Positions 2,468 through 52,032 of a DNA stretch of 52,651 bases are shown one piece after another (the stretch's first letter is position 1; the number at the start of each line of letters is the position of its first letter). The notes below the pieces were generated by a model, which was not told where the DNA came from, made no database searches, and worked only from the letters and a program-made list of their open reading frames with translations. The DNA comes from Gemmatimonadales bacterium. GTDB lineage: Bacteria > Gemmatimonadota > Gemmatimonadetes > Gemmatimonadales > GWC2-71-9. The position numbers and the translations under genes are program-made. Location of the stretch: positions 1 to 52,651 of the forward strand of contig DASTRQ010000171.1 in NCBI GenBank assembly GCA_035761145.1, written 5' to 3'.

Positions 2468-4621
2468 ATGCTTCTCAATCGTGTGGTGGCACTCGGCTCG
2501 CCCATCGTCCTCGGGCTCGTTCTCGGGGCGGCGCCGCTCCGCGCGGCCGATGACGTGCCGGCCACCGTACGCCGCATCGCGGCCACCACGCAGCTCGCGG
2601 CGCAGGAATACCGGATCGGCGTGCGCGACGGCAAGGTCGTGGCCCAGGCCGAGGTGGACGAGGCGAAGCTCTTCCTGACCGAGGCGCGCCGGGCCGCGGC
2701 GCTCCTCCCCGCGCCGGGTGACCGGGAGACCATCGCGGCGCTCGACGCCCTGCTCGGGCAGGTGGGGCGCACGGTCTCGCCAGATACCCTGGCCGCGGGG
2801 GTCGCGGCGCTCGGCGCCCGCCTGGCGGCCACGTACCAGGTCACGCTCGAGGAGATGCCCGCCACCCCTCCGTCGCTGGCGCGCGGGCGGGAGCTCTATG
2901 CCCGCGAATGCGCCAGCTGTCACGGCGTCGCGGGCGCGGGGGACGGGATCGCCGCCGCTACGCTCACCCCGCCGCCCGCCGACCTCACCGCCCGCGTCGT
3001 GCTCGCCGGCACCTCGCCGCTCGACTTCTACCGTCGCATCAGCATCGGGGTCGCGGGGACCTCGATGCCCGCCTATGAGGCCCGGCTCTCGAACGACGAC
3101 CGGTGGGCGCTCGCGGCGTACGCCTCGACGCTCCGCCTGCCGGCGCCCGCGGGGGATGTCCCCGCCGACCTGAGCGGCTTCGACGCCACGGCCCGGCTGA
3201 GTGACAGCGCCCTCGCGGCCGCGGTGGCCCCGGGGACCGACGTCTCCGCGCCGGCGGCGCTGGCGCGCGTGGCTGCGGTGCGGCAGGCGGCGACGCTCGA
3301 GGGGTCGCCGGTGGACTTCGGCCCCCTCTACGACCGGGTGCGCGCGACGCTCGCCACGGCCGTGGCCCAGGCCGAGGCGGGCCGCACCGAGGCGGCGAGC
3401 GCCACGGCGTTCGACGCCTACATGGCCTTCGAGAAGGTGGAGCCGACGCTCCGGGCCAAGGATGGCGGCCTGGCCGGCCGGCTCGAGGCGCAGTTCGCGG
3501 CGCTCCGCACGCGCGCCGCCGGCGGCGCCACCCCGGCGGAGCTGCGCCAGCTGCACGGCGAGCTCCTGGCCCAGCTCGAACTGGCCGAGCGGCTCACCGC
3601 GGAGCGGCCCTCGGCGACGAACCTCTTCCTGCAGTCGCTGGGCCTGATGCTGCGCGAGGGGCTCGAGGCGATCCTCATCGTCGGCGCCGTGCTCGCCTTC
3701 CTGACGCGCACCGGCGCCACCCGGCGCCGGCGCGACGTGCACGTGGGCGTCGGCGCGGCGGTGCTCGCGAGCCTGCTCACCGCGGTGGCGCTCGAGACGA
3801 TCTTCCAGCTCTCGGGCAACCAGCGTGAGGCGCTCGAGGGGCTCACGATGGTCCTCGCCGCGGCGGTGCTCTTCTACGTGAGCTACTGGCTGCTCAGCAA
3901 GATCGAGGTGGCCCGCTGGAACAAGTTCGTGAAGGAACAGGTCCAGGACGCCCTCTCCGGCGGTTCGGCCCTGGCGCTCGCCTCGGTGGCGTTCCTCGCG
4001 GTGTACCGCGAGGGGTTCGAGACGGTGCTCTTCTACAAGGCGCTCTACCTGGCGGGGGGCGCGGGGGCGTTCGGGCCCATCACCGCGGGGATCCTGGTCG
4101 GCGGCGCGGCGCTCGCGGTGCTCTACGTGGGGATCGAGCGCTTCGGGGTGCGGCTGCCGCTCAAGCCGTTCTTCGCGGTCACGAGCGCCTTCCTGTACTA
4201 CATGGCCTTCGTCTTCGCGGGGAAGGGGATCGCCGAGCTGCAGGGGGGCGGCTACGTGAGCGTGACACCCTTCACCCCCGAGATCCGGCTCCCCGCCCTG
4301 GGGATCTACTCCACCTGGGAGACGCTCGGCGTGCAGGGCTTCCTCCTGCTCGCCTTCCTCGGGGCGATGGTGTGGACCTTCCTCATCGAGCCGCGGCGCC
4401 TCAAGGTGACGGCGGTGATGGTGCCCGAGCCCGTTCCCGCCGGCACCGCCGCGTCCGCGGCCCCCGCCCCCGCGGGGACGATGGCGCCGGCAGCGGTGCT
4501 CGACCAGGATGTGCTCCGTTCGCTGGAGCGGATGGAGGCCGACGCGGCCGAGCTCAAGGCCGAGGTGCAGCGGCTCAAGGAACTGCTGGCGCGTCGGGCG
4601 ATCGACCGGATGACGACGTAG
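2468..4621 (+). CDS. cytochrome c / FTR1-family high-affinity iron permease fusion
   Basis: Signal peptide, then the heme-binding CASCHG (CxxCH) with distal Met (GTSMPAY). The polytopic C-terminal half carries the two FTR1 REXXE motifs (REGLEAILIVG, YREGFETVLFY). Confidence 0.85.
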   Translation: MLLNRVVALGSPIVLGLVLGAAPLRAADDVPATVRRIAATTQLAAQEYRIGVRDGKVVAQAEVDEAKLFLTEARRAAALLPAPGDRETIAALDALLGQVGRTVSPDTLAAGVAALGARLAATYQVTLEEMPATPPSLARGRELYARECASCHGVAGAGDGIAAATLTPPPADLTARVVLAGTSPLDFYRRISIGVAGTSMPAYEARLSNDDRWALAAYASTLRLPAPAGDVPADLSGFDATARLSDSALAAAVAPGTDVSAPAALARVAAVRQAATLEGSPVDFGPLYDRVRATLATAVAQAEAGRTEAASATAFDAYMAFEKVEPTLRAKDGGLAGRLEAQFAALRTRAAGGATPAELRQLHGELLAQLELAERLTAERPSATNLFLQSLGLMLREGLEAILIVGAVLAFLTRTGATRRRRDVHVGVGAAVLASLLTAVALETIFQLSGNQREALEGLTMVLAAAVLFYVSYWLLSKIEVARWNKFVKEQVQDALSGGSALALASVAFLAVYREGFETVLFYKALYLAGGAGAFGPITAGILVGGAALAVLYVGIERFGVRLPLKPFFAVTSAFLYYMAFVFAGKGIAELQGGGYVSVTPFTPEIRLPALGIYSTWETLGVQGFLLLAFLGAMVWTFLIEPRRLKVTAVMVPEPVPAGTAASAAPAPAGTMAPAAVLDQDVLRSLERMEADAAELKAEVQRLKELLARRAIDRMTT

Positions 4622-4661
4622 CGCAGGGGCGCAGGGGCGCAGGGTCGCAGGGTCGCAGGGG
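4622..4661. repeat. five tandem 8-mers (CGCAGGGK)5, G-tract rich
   Basis: The sequence reads cgcagggg cgcagggg cgcagggt cgcagggt cgcagggg directly after the FTR1 stop. A complementary CTGCGACCCTGC lies at 4676-4687. Confidence 0.95.
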
Positions 4662-4693
4662 GTGGGAGGCGGGCACTGCGACCCTGCAATGCT

Positions 4694-4787
4694 GTCATCC
4701 CGAGCGCAGCGAGGGATCTTGGAGGCGCGGCTCTGATCGGAGTCCGTCCTGCAAGATCCCTCGTTCGCTGCGCTCCCTCGGGGTGAC
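4694..4787. repeat. imperfect inverted repeat (REP/MITE-like palindromic element)
   Basis: Left arm GTCATCCCGAGCGCAGCGAGGGATCTTG (4694-4721). Right arm CAAGATCCCTCGTTCGCTGCGCTCCCTCGGGGTGAC (4752-4787). A 30-nt spacer separates them. Confidence 0.9.
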
Positions 4788-4817
4788 CGGGTCGCGCCTC
4801 TGCGTCCCTGCAGAAAT

Positions 4818-4844
4818 GAAAAGGTCCGCCGTAGCGGACCTTTT
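4818..4844. terminator. bidirectional intrinsic terminator hairpin
   Basis: GAAAA-GGTCCGC(4823-4829)-cgta-GCGGACC(4834-4840)-TTTT. A U-run is available on both strands (TTTTCGAA on +, TTTTCATTT on -). Confidence 0.75.
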
Positions 4845-4953
4845 CGAAGGAGGTGACTGGTAGCCCCCTGAGCTTTGACGGAGACGAGCAGAAGTGCCCG
4901 CTCCAACCCTTCTTCTACCAGCCACTTTGCCGTGGGCCGAACCGCGCCCTCAC
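4818..4953 (-). ncRNA. candidate ~135-nt small RNA (unclassified), predicted sigma-54 dependent
   Basis: Bounded by a -24/-12 promoter match and the intrinsic terminator. No credible ORF. Nested stems at 4857-4863/4915-4921 and 4880-4904. Anti-SD-like UCACCUCCUUC just 5' of the terminator. Ends are predicted, not observed. Confidence 0.45.
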
Positions 4954-4964
4954 TATCTCTATGG

Positions 4965-4979
4965 GCAAAGTTGGTGCCA
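4965..4979 (-). promoter_or_regulatory. sigma-54 (-24/-12) promoter match TGGCAC-N5-TTGC
   Basis: The minus strand reads GTGGCACCAACTTTGCCC. TGGCAC is the reverse complement of 4974-4979 and TTGC of 4965-4968, with an exact 5-nt spacer, in non-coding DNA. Confidence 0.5.
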
Positions 4980-5071
4980 CGGGTGAAGTGGAGGTGAAGT
5001 CGCTGTCTAACGTCTTTGTTCACATCGACTTAAGTGATGATCTCCGAGTGGTACCGCGACGGGCGGTTTGG

Positions 5072-5153
5072 TGTCAGATATTTGACAATTTGTAGTGCTA
5101 TTTTTGTAAAACATTGTCAAGCAACGAGTTACACGACTGTCAAAAATTTGACG
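5072..5153. promoter_or_regulatory. two enhancer-like palindromes TGTCA-N6-TGAC(A/G)
   Basis: TGTCAgatattTGACA at 5072-5087 and TGTCAaaaattTGACG at 5138-5153. Centres are 66 bp apart, ~125 and ~190 bp upstream of the predicted sRNA start. An extra TTGACAAT/ATTGTCAA inverted repeat lies at 5082-5089/5113-5120. Confidence 0.35.
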
Positions 5154-5190
5154 CTTACCATCGATCGACAGATTTTTTGACGATCCGGTC

Positions 5191-5258
5191 CCGCCCTTCG
5201 CGCTTGGCGCGCGGGGGCCCTCATCGGCGGCGGCGATCAGCGCCTCGAGGGTACGGCC
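5191..5258 (-). pseudogene. decayed duplicate of the 3' end of the GGDEF gene (frameshifted relic)
   Basis: 68 nt align with 7903-7971 with about 6 differences. The copy translates GRTLEALIAAADE and then loses frame through a 1-nt deletion, versus GRTLEALIAAADECLLRAKREGRN in the intact gene. Confidence 0.75.
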
Positions 5259-5270
5259 CGGTGTGCGCGG

Positions 5271-7766: not shown

Positions 7767-7854
7767 GCAGTACGTGCATCGAGGTGTCGCTCAGGCTGTC
7801 AGGATCTTTGACGGACCCCCCCTCGATCCTACGATTCGTCAAGAAATTTGACGG

Positions 7855-8979
7855 TCACTCCTCGTCGCGTGTTCCCCCGCTGAGCCGAGTGACCACGCGG
7901 TTCCGCCCTTCGCGCTTGGCGCGCAGGAGGCACTCATCGGCGGCGGCGATCAGCGCCTCGAGGGTGCGGCCATCGGCGGGGAAGGTGGCGACCCCGGCGC
8001 TGATGGTGAGGTGGCTGGGCTCGCGGTCGTCGGGGAGGTCGAGCTGGGTGGCCTCGATGGCCCGGCGGATGGCTTCGAGCTTGTTGGTGGCGCCGGCGAT
8101 CGCCGTCTCCGGGAAGAGGAGCGCGAACTCCTCGCCCCCGTAGCGGGCCAGCACGTCGGTGCGTCGCACCCGGCGCGAGAGGGTGTCCGCCACCGTGACC
8201 AGCACGGCGTCGCCGACCGGGTGACCGTGGACGTCGTTGAACGTCTTGAAGTGGTCCACGTCCACCAGGGCCACGGCGAGAGGGCGGCCGTACCGACGCG
8301 CGCGCTCGAACTCGGCGTCGGCGCGGCGGTCGAAGTAGGCCCGGTTCCCCACCGAGGTGAGCGGGTCGGTGCTGGCGGCCTGCTGGAGCTTCTGGGCGCG
8401 GTACACGAGGAGCCAGGCGAGGAGCACCGCGCTCACCATCAGGATGAGCCGGGTCACCTGGTCGGGGAAGCTGAAGGGACCCACCGCCTCCTGGCCCATC
8501 CCCGGGGCGGTCAGGTCCCAGCGCCACATCGTGTAGCCCACGAGCGCCCCGTACTGCGCGATGGCGAGCCCCCCCGCGGCGAGCACGATCCGCGCGTCGT
8601 AGCGGAGCGCCGTGGCCGCGATGGCCAGGAAGTAGACCTCGTAGGTGACCCTGCTGTTGACGCCGAAGAGCGGGAGCCCGACCGCGGTGAAGAGCGCGAG
8701 CGCCAGGGTCACCAGCGACACGTCGAGGCCGCTGCTCGCGAAGCCGATCCAGGAGCCGTAGCGCCCGCGGCGAAGCGCCATCCAGATCAGGATGGCCGCG
8801 CTGAACCCGGCCGCGGTGACCACGAAGCCGAGCCGGTAGATGGGATCGGCCGGGGCGAGGAAAAGCTTCCACGTCGGGGTGATCATCAGCAGCGTCGTGA
8901 CCACCAGGCGGGCCCACGCGACGCTCCGCTCCCCCTCCGCGCCGGCCGCCGCGAGCGCCGCCGTGGGCGGCCGCAGCAT
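7855..8979 (-). CDS. membrane-anchored diguanylate cyclase (GGDEF)
   Basis: About 6 hydrophobic helices precede a GGDEF domain with active site RYGGEEFALLF and an RxxD I-site (RRTD) five residues upstream. Confidence 0.9.
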   Translation of the reverse strand: MLRPPTAALAAAGAEGERSVAWARLVVTTLLMITPTWKLFLAPADPIYRLGFVVTAAGFSAAILIWMALRRGRYGSWIGFASSGLDVSLVTLALALFTAVGLPLFGVNSRVTYEVYFLAIAATALRYDARIVLAAGGLAIAQYGALVGYTMWRWDLTAPGMGQEAVGPFSFPDQVTRLILMVSAVLLAWLLVYRAQKLQQAASTDPLTSVGNRAYFDRRADAEFERARRYGRPLAVALVDVDHFKTFNDVHGHPVGDAVLVTVADTLSRRVRRTDVLARYGGEEFALLFPETAIAGATNKLEAIRRAIEATQLDLPDDREPSHLTISAGVATFPADGRTLEALIAAADECLLRAKREGRNRVVTRLSGGTRDEE

Positions 8980-9026: not shown

Positions 9027-9860
9027 TCAGGCCGCCTCCGGCGCCAGGTAGGGGCCCGGCGCCGTGGCGGGTGCCGCGCGGAGCCGGCGCATCAGCGCCG
9101 CGCCCGCGATCACGAGGAGCACGCTCATCGCCTGCGCCAGGGTGAAGGGACCGAGGATCCGGTCATCCTTGGCGCGCACGATCTCGATCAGGAAACGCTC
9201 CACCCCCGCGAACGCGAGGTAGGCGCCGAAGAGCCACCCGGTGCCGCGCCGCCGCCCCCGCCACGCCCAGAGCACCGCGAAGGCGCCGAGCATCATCGCC
9301 ACCTCGTACAGCTGGGTGGGATGCACCGCGAGCACCGTCGTGGGCGCCATGTCGGCGGGGAGGGCCACGTGGAGCTGGTCGCGCAGGTTGGCCACCGTGC
9401 TGGGGGGCATCCCCTGCGGGAACTTCATCCCCCACGGGAGCGAGGTGGGGCCGCCGTAGTCGTCATTGACGAGGAAGCACCCCACCCGGCCCAGCGCGTA
9501 CGCGGCGGCGAGCGCTGGCGCCACGAGCTGCGCCGTCCACGCGGTCGGGACCTTGAGCCGGATCCCGTTGAGCGCCACCGCCAGCGCCCCCCCCACGAAG
9601 CCGCCGTACCACACCAGCCCGCCGCGCGAGAACAGGGCGCCGGGGTCGCGGGTGAGCGCCACGTACCAGAGCTTGGCCCCGACGATCCCCCCCACCACGG
9701 CGGCGAGGGTGATGTCGGACGCATACTCCTCCCGCCACCCCCGGCGCCGGAGCTCGAGCTGGATGAGCCAGCTCCCGGTCAGGAAGCCGACCATCATCAT
9801 CAGGCCGTAGCCGGTGATCTCGAGGGGGCCGAGGTGGAGGACGAAGGGGTAGATGGTCAT
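9027..9860 (-). CDS. lgt: prolipoprotein diacylglyceryl transferase
   Basis: N-terminal GPLEITGYGLMMMVGF and the HPTQLYE signature in a polytopic protein of 277 aa. Confidence 0.9.
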   Translation of the reverse strand: MTIYPFVLHLGPLEITGYGLMMMVGFLTGSWLIQLELRRRGWREEYASDITLAAVVGGIVGAKLWYVALTRDPGALFSRGGLVWYGGFVGGALAVALNGIRLKVPTAWTAQLVAPALAAAYALGRVGCFLVNDDYGGPTSLPWGMKFPQGMPPSTVANLRDQLHVALPADMAPTTVLAVHPTQLYEVAMMLGAFAVLWAWRGRRRGTGWLFGAYLAFAGVERFLIEIVRAKDDRILGPFTLAQAMSVLLVIAGAALMRRLRAAPATAPGPYLAPEAA

Positions 9861-11599: not shown

Positions 11600-12129
11600 G
11601 ACCCGTCGGCGAGGAGCCGGTCGAGGAGCTGGCGGTTGGCGGCGCTGTTCCAGTCGTGCGCGCCGATCTTGCGCGCCACGATGCGCCCGTCGCGGTCTAG
11701 GAGGAAGCTCTCGGGGACGCCGGTGGTCTGGTACACCCCCTGGATGGCGCCGGTCGGGTCGTGCAGGATGTCGAAGGTGAGCGCGTACTGGCGCACGAAG
11801 GCGCGCACCGGGTCGGCGCTCCCCTCGTCGATGCTCACCGCCGCGATCTTGAACCCGCGCGCGGCGTAGTCCTTGTACAGCGCCTCCATCGAGGGCATCT
11901 CGGCCCGGCAGGGCCCGCACCAGGTGGCCCAGATGTTGACGAGCGTCACGTGGCCGGCCACGAAGTCGCGGAGCGCCACGGTGTCGCCGGTGGCGAGCAC
12001 CTCGACCCGGGCGTCGGGCGCGCGGGCGCCGACCCCCACGATCCCCTCGTCATTGGCGCGGGTGAGGGCGAAGCCCCCGAGGGCGAGGGTGGCGATGACG
12101 CCGAGGGCGACGAGCCATTGCTTGGACAT
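11596..12129 (-). CDS. TlpA/ResA-like periplasmic thiol:disulfide oxidoreductase
   Basis: Signal/anchor sequence, then the thioredoxin fold with WATWCGPC. Confidence 0.85.
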   Translation of the reverse strand: MSKQWLVALGVIATLALGGFALTRANDEGIVGVGARAPDARVEVLATGDTVALRDFVAGHVTLVNIWATWCGPCRAEMPSMEALYKDYAARGFKIAAVSIDEGSADPVRAFVRQYALTFDILHDPTGAIQGVYQTTGVPESFLLDRDGRIVARKIGAHDWNSAANRQLLDRLLADGS

Positions 12130-12130
12130 C

Positions 12131-12802
12131 TCAGGCCTCCTGGCTGCAGGCGCGCCGGAGGGCGCGCAGGGCGGCCGCGGGATCGGGCTGCCCGAAGACC
12201 GCCTGGCCGGCCACGAAGGTGTCGGCCCCCGCGCGCCAGGCGTCGGTGATGGTGTCGAGCGCGATGCCGCCGTCCACCTCGAGCGCCGCGGCGCTCCGCC
12301 GGCGGTCGAGCAGGGCGCGCGCCCGCGCGATCTTGTCCGTGCTGGCGGGGATGTAGCGCTGCCCGCCGAAGCCCGGGTTGACGCTCATGATGAGCAGGAG
12401 GTCCAGGTCGCCCGCGACCTCCTCGACCACCTGGAGCGGGGTCGAGGGGTTGAGCGCGAGCCCCGCCTGCATCCCCCGCTCGCGCACCGCCACGAGGTGG
12501 CGCTGCACGTGCACCGTGGCCTCGGGGTGGAAGGTGAAGATGGCGCAGCCGAGGTCGGCGTACGGGGCGATGAAGCGCTCCGGCTCGACGACCATCAGGT
12601 GCACGTCGAGCGGGAGGTCGGTCACCTTGCGGAGCGCCGCCACGAGCGGCGCGCCGAAGGTGAGGTTGGGCACGAAGCGCCCGTCCATCACGTCCACGTG
12701 CACCAGGTCGGCGCCGCCGGCCTTGGCCTCGGCCAGCTGCTCGCGGAGGCGGCCCAGGTCGGCGCTCAGCACGCTCGGGGCGAGGCGGATCTTCGGCGTC
12801 AT
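12131..12802 (-). CDS. rpe: ribulose-phosphate 3-epimerase
   Basis: PSVLSADLG, DVMDGRFVPN and SVNPGFGGQ motifs. 223 aa. ATGA overlap with the upstream PASTA gene. Confidence 0.92.
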   Translation of the reverse strand: MTPKIRLAPSVLSADLGRLREQLAEAKAGGADLVHVDVMDGRFVPNLTFGAPLVAALRKVTDLPLDVHLMVVEPERFIAPYADLGCAIFTFHPEATVHVQRHLVAVRERGMQAGLALNPSTPLQVVEEVAGDLDLLLIMSVNPGFGGQRYIPASTDKIARARALLDRRRSAAALEVDGGIALDTITDAWRAGADTFVAGQAVFGQPDPAAALRALRRACSQEA

Positions 12803-49262: not shown

Positions 49263-50609
<1,347 letters not shown>

Positions 50610-50611
50610 CG

Positions 50612-51841
50612 TCACCCCCGGCCCCCCGCCCCCGGCCCGGAGGGCGAGGACGCCACGGGAAGGCTGAAGTGGAACACCGCTCCGCCGCCCGGATTCTCCT
50701 CTACCCGTACCGTCCCGCCGTGCGCCTCGATCGTCTGCTTCACCAGCGCCAGCCCCAGCCCGGTGCCGTCCTTCTTGGTGGTGACGTACGGCTGGAAGAT
50801 CCGCTCCCGGTCGCTGGGACGGATGCCGGGCCCGCGATCGGCGACGCGCACCTCCACCCCGTCCTCCCGCGGCGCCACGCTCACCGCGATCTCGCCGCGT
50901 CCCTCCTGCGCCTCGGCCGCGTTGCGGAGCACGTTGCTGAACGCGCGCCGGAGCGGATCCAGGTGGCCGACGACATGCGGCGTGCCCGGGGCCACGGCGC
51001 AGCGCACCGTCACCTCCGGCGGGAGCGAGGTGCGCGCCAGCTCCTCGAGCAGCTCGCCGAGGTCCACCTCGGCCGCCGGGCCCTCGGGGAGGCGGCCGTA
51101 GTCGCTGAACTCGCGCGCCAGCTGCTCCAGCCGGCCCGACTCGGCGCGCAGCACCTCGAGCGCCTCGCGCTGCGCCGGGGTGGCGGTGGCGCCGAGCTGC
51201 GCCACGGCGAAGCGCATCGGGGTGAGGGGGTTCTTCATCTCGTGCGCCACCCGGCGCGCCACCTCGCGGAAGGCGCGGAGCCGCGCCGCCTCGAGCTCGC
51301 GCTCGCGCCCCGATTCGAGCTCGTCGGCCATCCCGCGCAGCGCCTCGCGCAGCACCCCGAACTCGGGGGCGCCGCGCCGCGGCGGCTCGGTGGGGAGCGC
51401 CTCCCGCCGGGCGATGTAGCCGGTCCACTCCACCAGCTCGCCGATGGGGCGGCTCAATTGGCGGCTGAGGTGCCCGGCGATCCGCGCGCCGGCATACACG
51501 ATGATCGCCCCCAGCAGGAGCAGGAACGCCGTGGCCGCGGTGCCGATGTAGGCGCTGTACGCGCTGACCTGCTGCGCCCGCGTGAGCGCCGTGCTGAGCG
51601 CCACCCGGTGCTCCGCCAGCGCGCGCTTCTCGAGGCTCGAGAGCCGCGTGGTGTCGATCGTCTCGATCAGCGCGCGCCCCGTCGTCCCCGCCGTCCCCAC
51701 CGCGAGGCGCATCGCCTCGGCCGTCGAACCGCTCTGGATGGTGAGCGCCCAGCTCACCAGCACCGCCGCGGTCGGCAGCACGCCGAGCGCGAGGAGCGCC
51801 CAGAGGATCCGCTGGCGGAAGGTGAGGGGGCGGGGAAGCAT
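50612..51841 (-). CDS. sensor histidine kinase (two TM, HAMP, HisKA, HATPase)
   Basis: H-box HEMKNPLTPM, N-box NVLRNAAEA, and G-boxes DRGPGI and GTGLGLA. ATG 51841 precedes the first TM. Confidence 0.88.
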   Translation of the reverse strand: MLPRPLTFRQRILWALLALGVLPTAAVLVSWALTIQSGSTAEAMRLAVGTAGTTGRALIETIDTTRLSSLEKRALAEHRVALSTALTRAQQVSAYSAYIGTAATAFLLLLGAIIVYAGARIAGHLSRQLSRPIGELVEWTGYIARREALPTEPPRRGAPEFGVLREALRGMADELESGRERELEAARLRAFREVARRVAHEMKNPLTPMRFAVAQLGATATPAQREALEVLRAESGRLEQLAREFSDYGRLPEGPAAEVDLGELLEELARTSLPPEVTVRCAVAPGTPHVVGHLDPLRRAFSNVLRNAAEAQEGRGEIAVSVAPREDGVEVRVADRGPGIRPSDRERIFQPYVTTKKDGTGLGLALVKQTIEAHGGTVRVEENPGGGAVFHFSLPVASSPSGPGAGGRG

Positions 51842-52032
51842 CCCTGAATGTAGCGTGGGGCGTGTCAGTTGAACACAGGTGGTGGGGGTCTTGGTCCGGA
51901 CGCCTGGGGGTGGGGCTGCGCCGGCCGGGCGGGCCAAATCTTTGGGATCGAGTGGGTTAGGCGGCAGGCCCCAGCCTGAAGGCGCCCCTATAGGAACCCC
52001 GCCTTCACTCCCCTATCTTTACCCCCGCCCAG

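Follow-up and report, generated by a model that had tools for sequence, protein, structure and literature searches.

A predicted sigma-54-controlled small RNA family conserved in Gemmatimonadales and its candidate activator

Small RNAs (sRNAs) governed by sigma-54 and a bacterial enhancer-binding protein (bEBP) include GlmY/GlmZ of Enterobacteriaceae with the regulator GlrR (QseF), the Qrr RNAs of Vibrio with LuxO (SypG in V. fischeri), and CrcZ/CrcY of Pseudomonas with CbrB, and these are the closest described counterparts of the element treated here, a candidate sRNA gene on the minus strand, at 4953-4814, of a 52,651-nucleotide stretch of a Gemmatimonadales genome (contig DASTRQ010000171.1, assembly GCA_035761145.1; the whole stretch is called the window below). 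GlmY is a protein decoy, the Qrr RNAs act via a conserved single-stranded seed together with Hfq, and CrcZ, an RNA of ~400 nt with A-rich CA motifs whose gene lies downstream of the activator locus, sequesters a protein through repeated motifs. GlrR sites follow the consensus TGTCN10GACA (PMC3045617), and CrcZ/CrcY are described as a sigma-54- and bEBP-dependent sRNA system (PMC6296734, PMC8871633) and two bEBPs as able to feed one Qrr promoter (PMC10162802). Moreover, predicted sigma-54 non-coding RNAs of Desulfovibrio vulgaris have been assigned to enhancer-binding proteins by comparative genomics, one of them being tied to envelope stress (PMC4641369). For Gemmatimonadota, our literature search found no described sRNA, regulatory RNA or RNA motif.

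Comparison with these systems revealed that the Gemmatimonadota locus shares with GlmY/GlmZ a circuit logic, namely sigma-54 promoters (predicted here), an NtrC-type response regulator (a candidate here), far-upstream palindromes (YGTC-N8/9-GACR here), conserved elements between enhancer and promoter, which in GlmY/GlmZ are IHF sites, a three-stem-loop layout, and the exchange of the sigma-54 promoter for a sigma-70 promoter in some lineages (PMC3045617), as in one clade here. However, no link to glmS or RapZ emerged here, neither of the two Rfam models matches even at E <= 10, the phyla differ, three enhancer sites stand against two here, the spacer is shorter here, and an adjacent kinase/regulator operon contrasts with an orphan regulator several kb away. 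The Qrr RNAs are likewise under sigma-54/bEBP control, terminator-ended, ~100 nt long, equipped with a conserved core and syntenic with their activator (a candidate here), but the invariant bases of the Gemmatimonadota RNA lie in an internal loop closed by helices, and no Rfam Qrr match was obtained. Tandem-module variants of the RNA recall the repeat logic of CrcZ; the RNA is, however, ~135 nt long with one, rarely two, structured purine-loop modules, and the Rfam scans gave no similarity to CrcZ/CrcY. The Desulfovibrio non-coding RNAs come from unrelated organisms, and their sequences were compared through Rfam only.

No Rfam 15 family matched anywhere in the window when cmscan, a search already suggested in a preliminary description of this DNA, was run at gathering thresholds. 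The best sub-threshold matches at the locus were rsmX (22.3 bits versus 56) and istR (18 versus 45), the rsmX alignment resting chiefly on the terminator hairpin. A search at E <= 10 with the locus and a consensus-like homolog, L066, yielded terminator-driven or spurious matches, and assignment to a known RNA family was rejected. By its sequence, the RNA appears to be a new, previously uncatalogued family among sigma-54/bEBP-controlled sRNAs. As a side observation, the Rfam narK RNA model matched L066 weakly (11.2 bits) at 12680-12726, aligned solely to the GGCAC...CTTGCT promoter, and the narK model may itself partly encode a sigma-54 promoter.

According to the preliminary description, the minus strand would encode an sRNA that stands alone, with enhancer-type palindromes and a sigma-54 promoter in front of it and a terminator of its own. 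This core proposal is supported by comparative covariation, a fixed promoter distance and fixed enhancer positions. Accepting it, window positions 4953-4814 would form an independent gene for a structured sRNA of ~135-140 nt, transcribed in this genome and in most relatives from a sigma-54 promoter at fixed distance, on which an NtrC-type response regulator with a GAFTDA loop would act from two palindromes ~110-190 nt upstream of the start; the RNA would then regulate post-transcriptionally in trans, with a conserved helical module termed P2-P3 as its functional unit. We hold the identity of the RNA and its transcriptional control, taken jointly, to be very likely, and the favoured reading as a whole, a conserved sigma-54-driven trans-acting sRNA with a syntenic bEBP activator and a functional P2-P3 module, to be probable.

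Homologs were collected with the FTR1 iron permease encoded next to the RNA as protein query, which gave 80 loci, nearly all from Gemmatimonadota/Gemmatimonadales metagenome-assembled genomes, with 52-77% protein identity. An nhmmer search of these FTR1-anchored loci with window 4812-5200, minus strand, found matches in 57 of the 80, always just downstream of, and convergent with, FTR1, and a profile of the RNA core returned the same locus set with two copies in four loci. In addition to the genome loci, a pattern built from the two invariant strands of the RNA core recovered the RNA in at least 120 metagenome contigs; all figures derived from such contigs (the sets of 106, 81, 61, 138, 123, 114 and 154) are counts among the matches listed. 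For detection, an nhmmer profile and regular-expression anchors sufficed. On these sequences, the RNA family is conserved across Gemmatimonadales.

The predicted promoter, TGGCAC-N5-TTGC with the -24 GG and -12 GC elements (TGGCACCAACTTTGC; 4979-4965, minus strand), is an exact match, as had been recognized earlier, and the one exact occurrence within the 52.6-kb window, although the surrounding 18-mer really lies at 4980-4963, a slip of one nucleotide. With up to one mismatch, the motif occurs four times in the window against 2.3 expected, a count near chance and not significant, and by itself the motif proves nothing. Its conservation across relatives, where the GG/GC elements are kept at fixed distance and the spacer is variable, had been named as a check, and was found: of 58 genome homologs, 43 have TGGCA[CT]-N5-[TCG]TGC at 62-69 nt before the core anchor, the spacer differing freely among them. 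Likewise, 85 of the 106 metagenome homologs with enough upstream sequence carry the motif within 110 nt before the core, mostly at 57-74 nt, and the remaining ones mostly have near-variants (CGGCAC; a TGA -12 element) or a sigma-70 promoter. Enrichment was measured over 1.27 Mb of related DNA, in which 45 of the 52 motif matches front the RNA. The locus therefore combines -24/-12 elements at exact spacing with upstream palindromes at ~100-200 bp, as in sigma-54 promoters, binding being predicted. From sigma-54 geometry, transcription would start at 4953 on the minus strand, 12 nt downstream of the -12 C.

Upstream of the promoter, two palindromes of the form GTC-N8-GAC were identified on the minus strand, a distal one, CGTCAAATTTTTGACA (5138-5153), and a proximal one, TGTCAAATATCTGACA (5072-5087), centred ~192 and ~126 nt upstream of the predicted start. 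Described beforehand as two TGTCA-N6-TGAC copies 66 bp apart, they are present, and their positions and spacing are kept in homologs. This motif has three matches in the window when both strands are counted (5072-5087 reads on both) versus 0.16 expected, and none of 100 shuffles reached three. Homologs carry YGTC-N9-GACR starting ~90-99 and ~155-164 nt upstream of TGGCAC; of 114 distinct upstream regions, 63 have the proximal site at 90-99 nt. In the window and its nearest relatives, the N8 form stands at 108 and 174 nt, the 66-nt spacing being unchanged. A looser palindrome, TAAG-N15-22-TTAG, follows each enhancer site at fixed positions, ~10-fold over shuffles. Its window counterparts on the minus strand are a GTAAC-N17-TTTAC element between the enhancer sites (5106-5132; positional peak of the type 130-139 nt upstream of TGGCAC) and the palindromic element TTAAGTC-N12-GACGTTAG between enhancer and promoter (5007-5033; peak at 40-49 nt). 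Our guess is that these TAAG-type elements could be sites for a DNA-bending protein or a second regulator.

The predicted 144-nt transcript folds with -67.8 kcal/mol (z = -4.5) and begins with P1, a 5' hairpin GGGC-N8-GCCC (4934-4949; all elements of the RNA are on the minus strand) that is weak in the window, reaches 6-11 bp in most homologs and is free to vary in sequence. An A-rich single-stranded linker, ACGGCAAA (4926-4933; consensus GAAAAG, with AAAG almost invariant in the alignment), leads to the P2-P3 module, the conserved core (4853-4925). This module is closed by the P2 helix of 11 bp (4915-4925 with 4853-4863; 10-11 bp in the alignment) and comprises a purine-rich 5x6 internal loop with invariant nucleotides, AAGAA facing AGGGGG (4910-4914 / 4864-4869), a 4-bp helix P2b, GGGU/GCUC (4906-4909 with 4870-4873; GGGU/ACUC in homologs, GAGU/ACUC in one clade), the P3 hairpin (4880-4904; 98.9% paired) and a 3' bulge GUCAAA (4874-4879; GUAAA in the family alignment). 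The inner hairpin at 4880-4904 had been drawn correctly before; the closing stem, then given as 7 bp, extends over 11 bp. In our view, GGAG/CUCC with a bulged U describes P3 better; clades with GAAG/CUUC have exchanged G for A in the 5' strand and, to match, C for U.

A pyrimidine-rich linker, CUCCUUCG (4845-4852), conserved in composition alone and giving, when read on from the 3' end of P2, the anti-Shine-Dalgarno-like tract UCACCUCCUUC, connects the module with the intrinsic terminator, AAAAGGUCCGC-UACG-GCGGACCUUUU plus U-tract (4814-4844), a covarying helix. The terminator had been anticipated in its 7-bp GC-rich core, GGTCCGC-TACG-GCGGACC, which is present and, together with A4/U4 flanks, forms a 12-bp bidirectional hairpin at 4819-4844; the tract following the hairpin is TTTTCATTT at 4814-4822, also read as UUUUCAUUU. 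A generic terminator scan of the locus did not call the 4819-4844 hairpin, which we explain by absorption of the U-run into the extended stem. Being bidirectional, this terminator may also end the convergent FTR1 transcript.

The stem covariation that relatives were expected to display was assessed in an alignment of 56 sequences using RNAalifold and pair counts against 500 column shuffles and slid-partner controls. Canonical pairing reached 98.2% of paired cells, no column shuffle attained the observed values, and sliding the partners by 1-3 columns lowered the paired fraction to 36-47%. Compensatory double changes were found at 21 of the 36 pairs of the RNAalifold structure (P2, P2b, P3 and terminator), and counts by helix gave such changes at 6/11 pairs of P2, which is 100% paired in the alignment, and at 12/13 pairs of the terminator helix. 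Over 138 distinct cores, canonical pairs accounted for 99.1% of P2, most of whose positions show several types of pair. G-U pairs are frequent (44/56 at one P2 position), which identifies the minus strand as the RNA strand. Among 123 distinct leaders, divergent in sequence, almost every one folds from the predicted +1 into a hairpin of 6-11 bp; that this hairpin begins within a few nt of 4953 fits the promoter-inferred start. Invariant nucleotides are GAAGAAG(G/A)GU, part of GGAGC, CA in the P3 loop, and CUCAGGGGGC; some base-paired module positions also never vary, and P1 and the terminator drift freely. Taken together, the element combines its own promoter, a covarying terminator, the lack of a co-oriented downstream gene, frame-breaking indels and structural covariation, as a stand-alone sRNA would, the transcript itself being predicted.

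As for the activator, virtually all loci that extend far enough encode an NtrC-type response regulator (REC, AAA+, HTH_8) ~3 kb upstream of FTR1. This syntenic bEBP, for which NCBIfam has no named equivalog, reaches as much as 98% identity between species whose FTR1 proteins share only ~55-60% identity with that of the window, and should sit just beyond the left edge of the window. Its sigma-54 contact loop co-varies with the promoter: GHEKGAFTDA (GAYTDA in one case) was found in 33 of 33 genome loci holding a single-module sigma-54 RNA together with the bEBP, including L003 from the clade of the window, whereas the loop is destroyed in all eight sigma-70-type loci (e.g. REGNGSEPSA, VEGEAGAGHD), reads TERASETEG in a tandem-module clade with different enhancer sites, and has lost the Thr in three of four RNA-less loci (GAFPEA, GAFAEA, GAHAEA). 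Metagenome contigs carrying both RNA and bEBP gave the same picture among the matches listed, with intact loops in 5/5 sigma-54 loci and degraded ones in one tandem and one sigma-70 locus. Placed on a neighbour-joining tree of the bEBP, degraded loops occupy several separate lineages, with L006 and L045 nested inside the intact crown group, which we read as at least two or three independent events of degradation. GAFTDA and GAYTDA are listed as activation-compatible variants in Desulfovibrio vulgaris (PMC4641369), and a Dickeya paper left the compatibility of such loop variants with activation open. Within 10 kb of the syntenic bEBP, moreover, no sigma-54 motif recurs apart from the sRNA promoter. 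From this co-variation and synteny we place the syntenic bEBP first among the candidates for activating the sRNA promoter.

The activator originally pointed out, at 49263-50609 of the window, does possess a canonical GAFTGA loop; with a histidine kinase directly upstream (50612-51937), it forms a classical two-component pair and, at 41% identity, is a paralog of the better candidate, the syntenic bEBP. Orthologs of the latter that retain REC, AAA+ and the invariant DNA-binding helix but have a destroyed GAFTGA loop were observed in L058, L059, L060, L067, L069, L073, L074, L077, L008, L065, L006, L034 and L045. They presumably no longer work with sigma-54, and as they are still maintained, a function independent of sigma-54 is implied.

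Several points weigh against the favoured reading. The RNA start, its ends and its sigma-54 dependence are predictions, and rpoN was not seen within the window. The syntenic bEBP lies outside the window, its presence in this genome being extrapolated from L001 and L003, and L020 keeps GAFTDA though the RNA is absent at this position, the sole exception of its kind. Furthermore, the helix by which the syntenic bEBP would contact DNA does not vary in any clade, even in those with other enhancer sites or a sigma-70 promoter; therefore, there is no co-variation between helix and site, and the protein must have other roles. Of helix and sigma-54 contact loop, the loop is the informative character. 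With respect to function, the conservation pattern and the tandem modules are the two grounds on which a binding partner is preferred, and a search of all loci for complements of the invariant loops gave no conserved pairing site as local target. The sole recurrent match, CCCTTCTTC inside FTR1, codes for Pro-Phe-Phe, and its variation falls on the third position of codons; it was rejected as a target since it is codon-driven.

As no co-oriented gene follows downstream, the RNA should act in trans. Constraint is concentrated in the P2-P3 module, including paired positions, and the module is duplicated in some lineages; for these reasons we prefer a partner, most likely a protein, that recognises the invariant internal-loop module or is titrated by it, in the manner of GlmY and CrcZ, and although this falls somewhat short of being probable, we rank it above an antisense mechanism. 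Judged from the aligned sequences, such conservation is seen more typically where the fold of an RNA is what gets recognised, be it by a protein partner, as a decoy such as GlmY, CrcZ and 6S, or by a ligand, than in a simple seed-pairing sRNA. The antisense mechanism, put forward in the preliminary description, holds that the C/U tract of the same sRNA, UCACCUCCUUC, pairs with GGAGG Shine-Dalgarno sequences and blocks translation. The tract is real, although it lies at 4856-4846, one nucleotide from where it had been placed; it is unpaired in the minimum-energy fold of the window RNA and in its closest relatives, pyrimidines make up 74% of the 8 nt that follow P2 in the family, with ACCUC in 34/56 homologs, and tandem-module RNAs carry a second copy of the tract with their second module. 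C-rich anti-Shine-Dalgarno seeds are also known in other bacterial sRNAs, e.g. RsaE/RoxS and mycobacterial 6C. However, the tract is lineage-specific, with the full CCUCC in just 10/56 homologs, and few parts of the RNA are less conserved, so that it is not the conserved functional core; half of the anti-Shine-Dalgarno motif (CAC) is locked in P2, the invariant nucleotides are located elsewhere, and a generic anti-Shine-Dalgarno sequence would be without target specificity. We thus regard translational blocking through the C/U tract as possible but rather unlikely.

The other explanations concern the nature of the element itself. An invariant internal loop within covarying helices, followed by a terminator, has the look of an aptamer with its expression platform, and the module could accordingly bind a metabolite and steer terminator formation in cis as a riboswitch or attenuator. 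Yet no same-strand gene follows, the next genes (rraA or FTR1) being convergent in essentially all loci; the RNA carries a predicted regulated promoter of its own, none of the riboswitch families in Rfam matches, and the potential for alternative pairing between P3 and terminator is no greater with their own partners (-10.98 kcal/mol on average) than with permuted ones (-10.84 +/- 0.10), without a sign of co-evolution, so that we consider control in cis very unlikely. Even less credit is due to a small protein gene or to a 3' untranslated or terminator region of lgt or FTR1. Mechanical open reading frames do overlap the interval (4853-5095 on the plus and 4695-4925 on the minus strand), but 1-nt indels separate clades within the core (alignment columns 54 and 60), compensatory double substitutions keep helices and not codons, and an own promoter, sigma-54 or sigma-70, is present at nearly all loci. 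Since the core indels are joined by loss of the sole candidate start codon in one clade (GTG being GTC in the sigma-70 clade), a conserved open reading frame is ruled out, in line with the earlier statement that the transcript has no credible one. Finally, a chance co-occurrence of motifs in an AT-rich spacer, without any functional element, would agree with a sigma-54 motif count that does not exceed expectation; retention of the element in ~180 loci, among the matches listed, with covariation, fixed promoter distance and fixed enhancer positions renders this barely conceivable.

As predicted, the regulatory module is complete, comprising enhancer sites, sigma-54 promoter, sRNA and candidate activator. 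A bolder reading, which we offer as speculation and regard as doubtful, makes the RNA the principal, perhaps only, sigma-54 output of an order-wide orphan NtrC-type regulator, in a one-regulator/one-sRNA circuit like GlrR-GlmY, LuxO-Qrr and CbrB-CrcZ, with the loop module as a specific protein decoy or binding site or as a ligand site. The repeated decay of the GAFTGA loop upon a switch to sigma-70, a change of enhancer sites or loss of the sRNA would then be a record of co-evolution between an activator and its single target, and the neighbouring genes lgt, TamB, NlpC/P60 and lipid kinase would link the circuit to envelope or lipoprotein homeostasis. Apart from this, the internal loop, purine-rich and invariant, may constitute a novel RNA motif for binding a protein or a ligand, and with ~140 distinct cores, among the matches listed, and clear covariation, the family would be fit for submission to Rfam. 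Knowledge gained with enterobacterial GlmY/GlmZ would be extended to a distant phylum, the abundant and little-cultured soil phylum Gemmatimonadota, and the co-variation of loop and promoter could serve as an approach to assign enhancer-binding proteins to their targets by comparative genomics alone.

Variants of the family were found at both the promoter and the module level. A sigma-70 clade, recognisable by its P2 strands GUCCCAGGAC/GUUCUGGGAC, has no sigma-54 motif and instead carries TTGACA-N17-TAGnnT directly after lgt; in L060, two complete sRNA genes stand in tandem at 12080-12640, each with a sigma-70-type promoter and a terminator. A tandem-module clade has two modules per transcript, a sigma-54 promoter and quite different palindromes, CCGGAA...TTCCGG. 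In L004, L009 and L065, one promoter precedes a transcript that contains two P2-P3 modules, and further two-module loci are L085, L107, L116, L123, L124, L142, L153, L160 and L195. No nhmmer match was obtained in 23 of the 80 loci, many of which end too close to FTR1 to judge. Seven loci (L006, L020, L033, L034, L045, L062 and L079) have lgt beside FTR1 and no RNA between them, and no RNA relics were found in the lgt-FTR1 spacers of L006 and L062 by reading, nor in any of the seven by profile search.

The non-coding island of ~650 bp noted at the outset is real and measures 649 bp (4622-5270) between two gene stops, that of the plus-strand cytochrome-c/FTR1 fusion gene on the left (4621) and that of a minus-strand IPT/TIG-domain gene on the right (5271). 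The drop in GC content seen there was also reproduced, with 40-48% across 4950-5200 versus ~70% in flanking DNA. In relatives, the conserved order is rsmB, rpe, ahpC/TSA, tsaD, lgt and then the RNA, on which an optional rraA, FTR1, PPTase, HAD hydrolase, NlpC/P60, the NtrC-type bEBP, a YegS-like lipid kinase and TamB converge. Where metagenome contigs had enough flank, lgt was found upstream of the RNA in 80/81 and FTR1 downstream in 60/61; in the window, inserted GGDEF and IPT genes, together ~4.1 kb, separate lgt (9027-9860) from the RNA. The rraA-family gene (RNase E regulator or aldolase; e.g. L066 12055-12537) lies between FTR1 and the sRNA, convergent with the latter, in about half of the loci and is absent from the window; adjacent in just 80/154 loci, it was rejected as an obligatory neighbour.

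A few further observations concern the island and its surroundings. A relic of a GGDEF pseudogene at 5185-5258, just downstream of the IPT gene, is near-identical, with a 1-nt deletion, to 7885-7958, the 3' end of the GGDEF gene at 7855-8979. In both copies, a CGTCAAATTT..GAC palindrome follows the GGDEF 3' end, with palindromes at 7837-7853 and 7797-7813. As a GGDEF 3' end and an enhancer-like site are thus present on either side of the IPT gene, this segment has been duplicated, and the flanking duplication suggests that the IPT gene was inserted at this place. No sigma-54 motif adjoins the two GTC-N9-GAC palindromes that precede the IPT gene. No tRNA or tmRNA was found when these were looked for. 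Directly 3' of the FTR1 stop, an 8-nt tandem repeat (GCGCAGGG/TCGCAGGG) continues in overlapping copies up to 4660; beyond it come long inverted repeats nested in one another, among them CCCGAGCGCAGCGAGGGATC with its partner (4699-4791). As a whole, 4621-4811 looks like a REP-type extragenic palindrome; a search for a second copy of its repeat unit elsewhere in the window found none, the unit occurring once. The FTR1 iron permease itself (2468-4621) carries a fused N-terminal cytochrome-c domain (CXXCH; Pfam Cytochrome_CBB3, Cytochrom_C), and relatives of this fusion align over almost the full length, the N-terminal region included.

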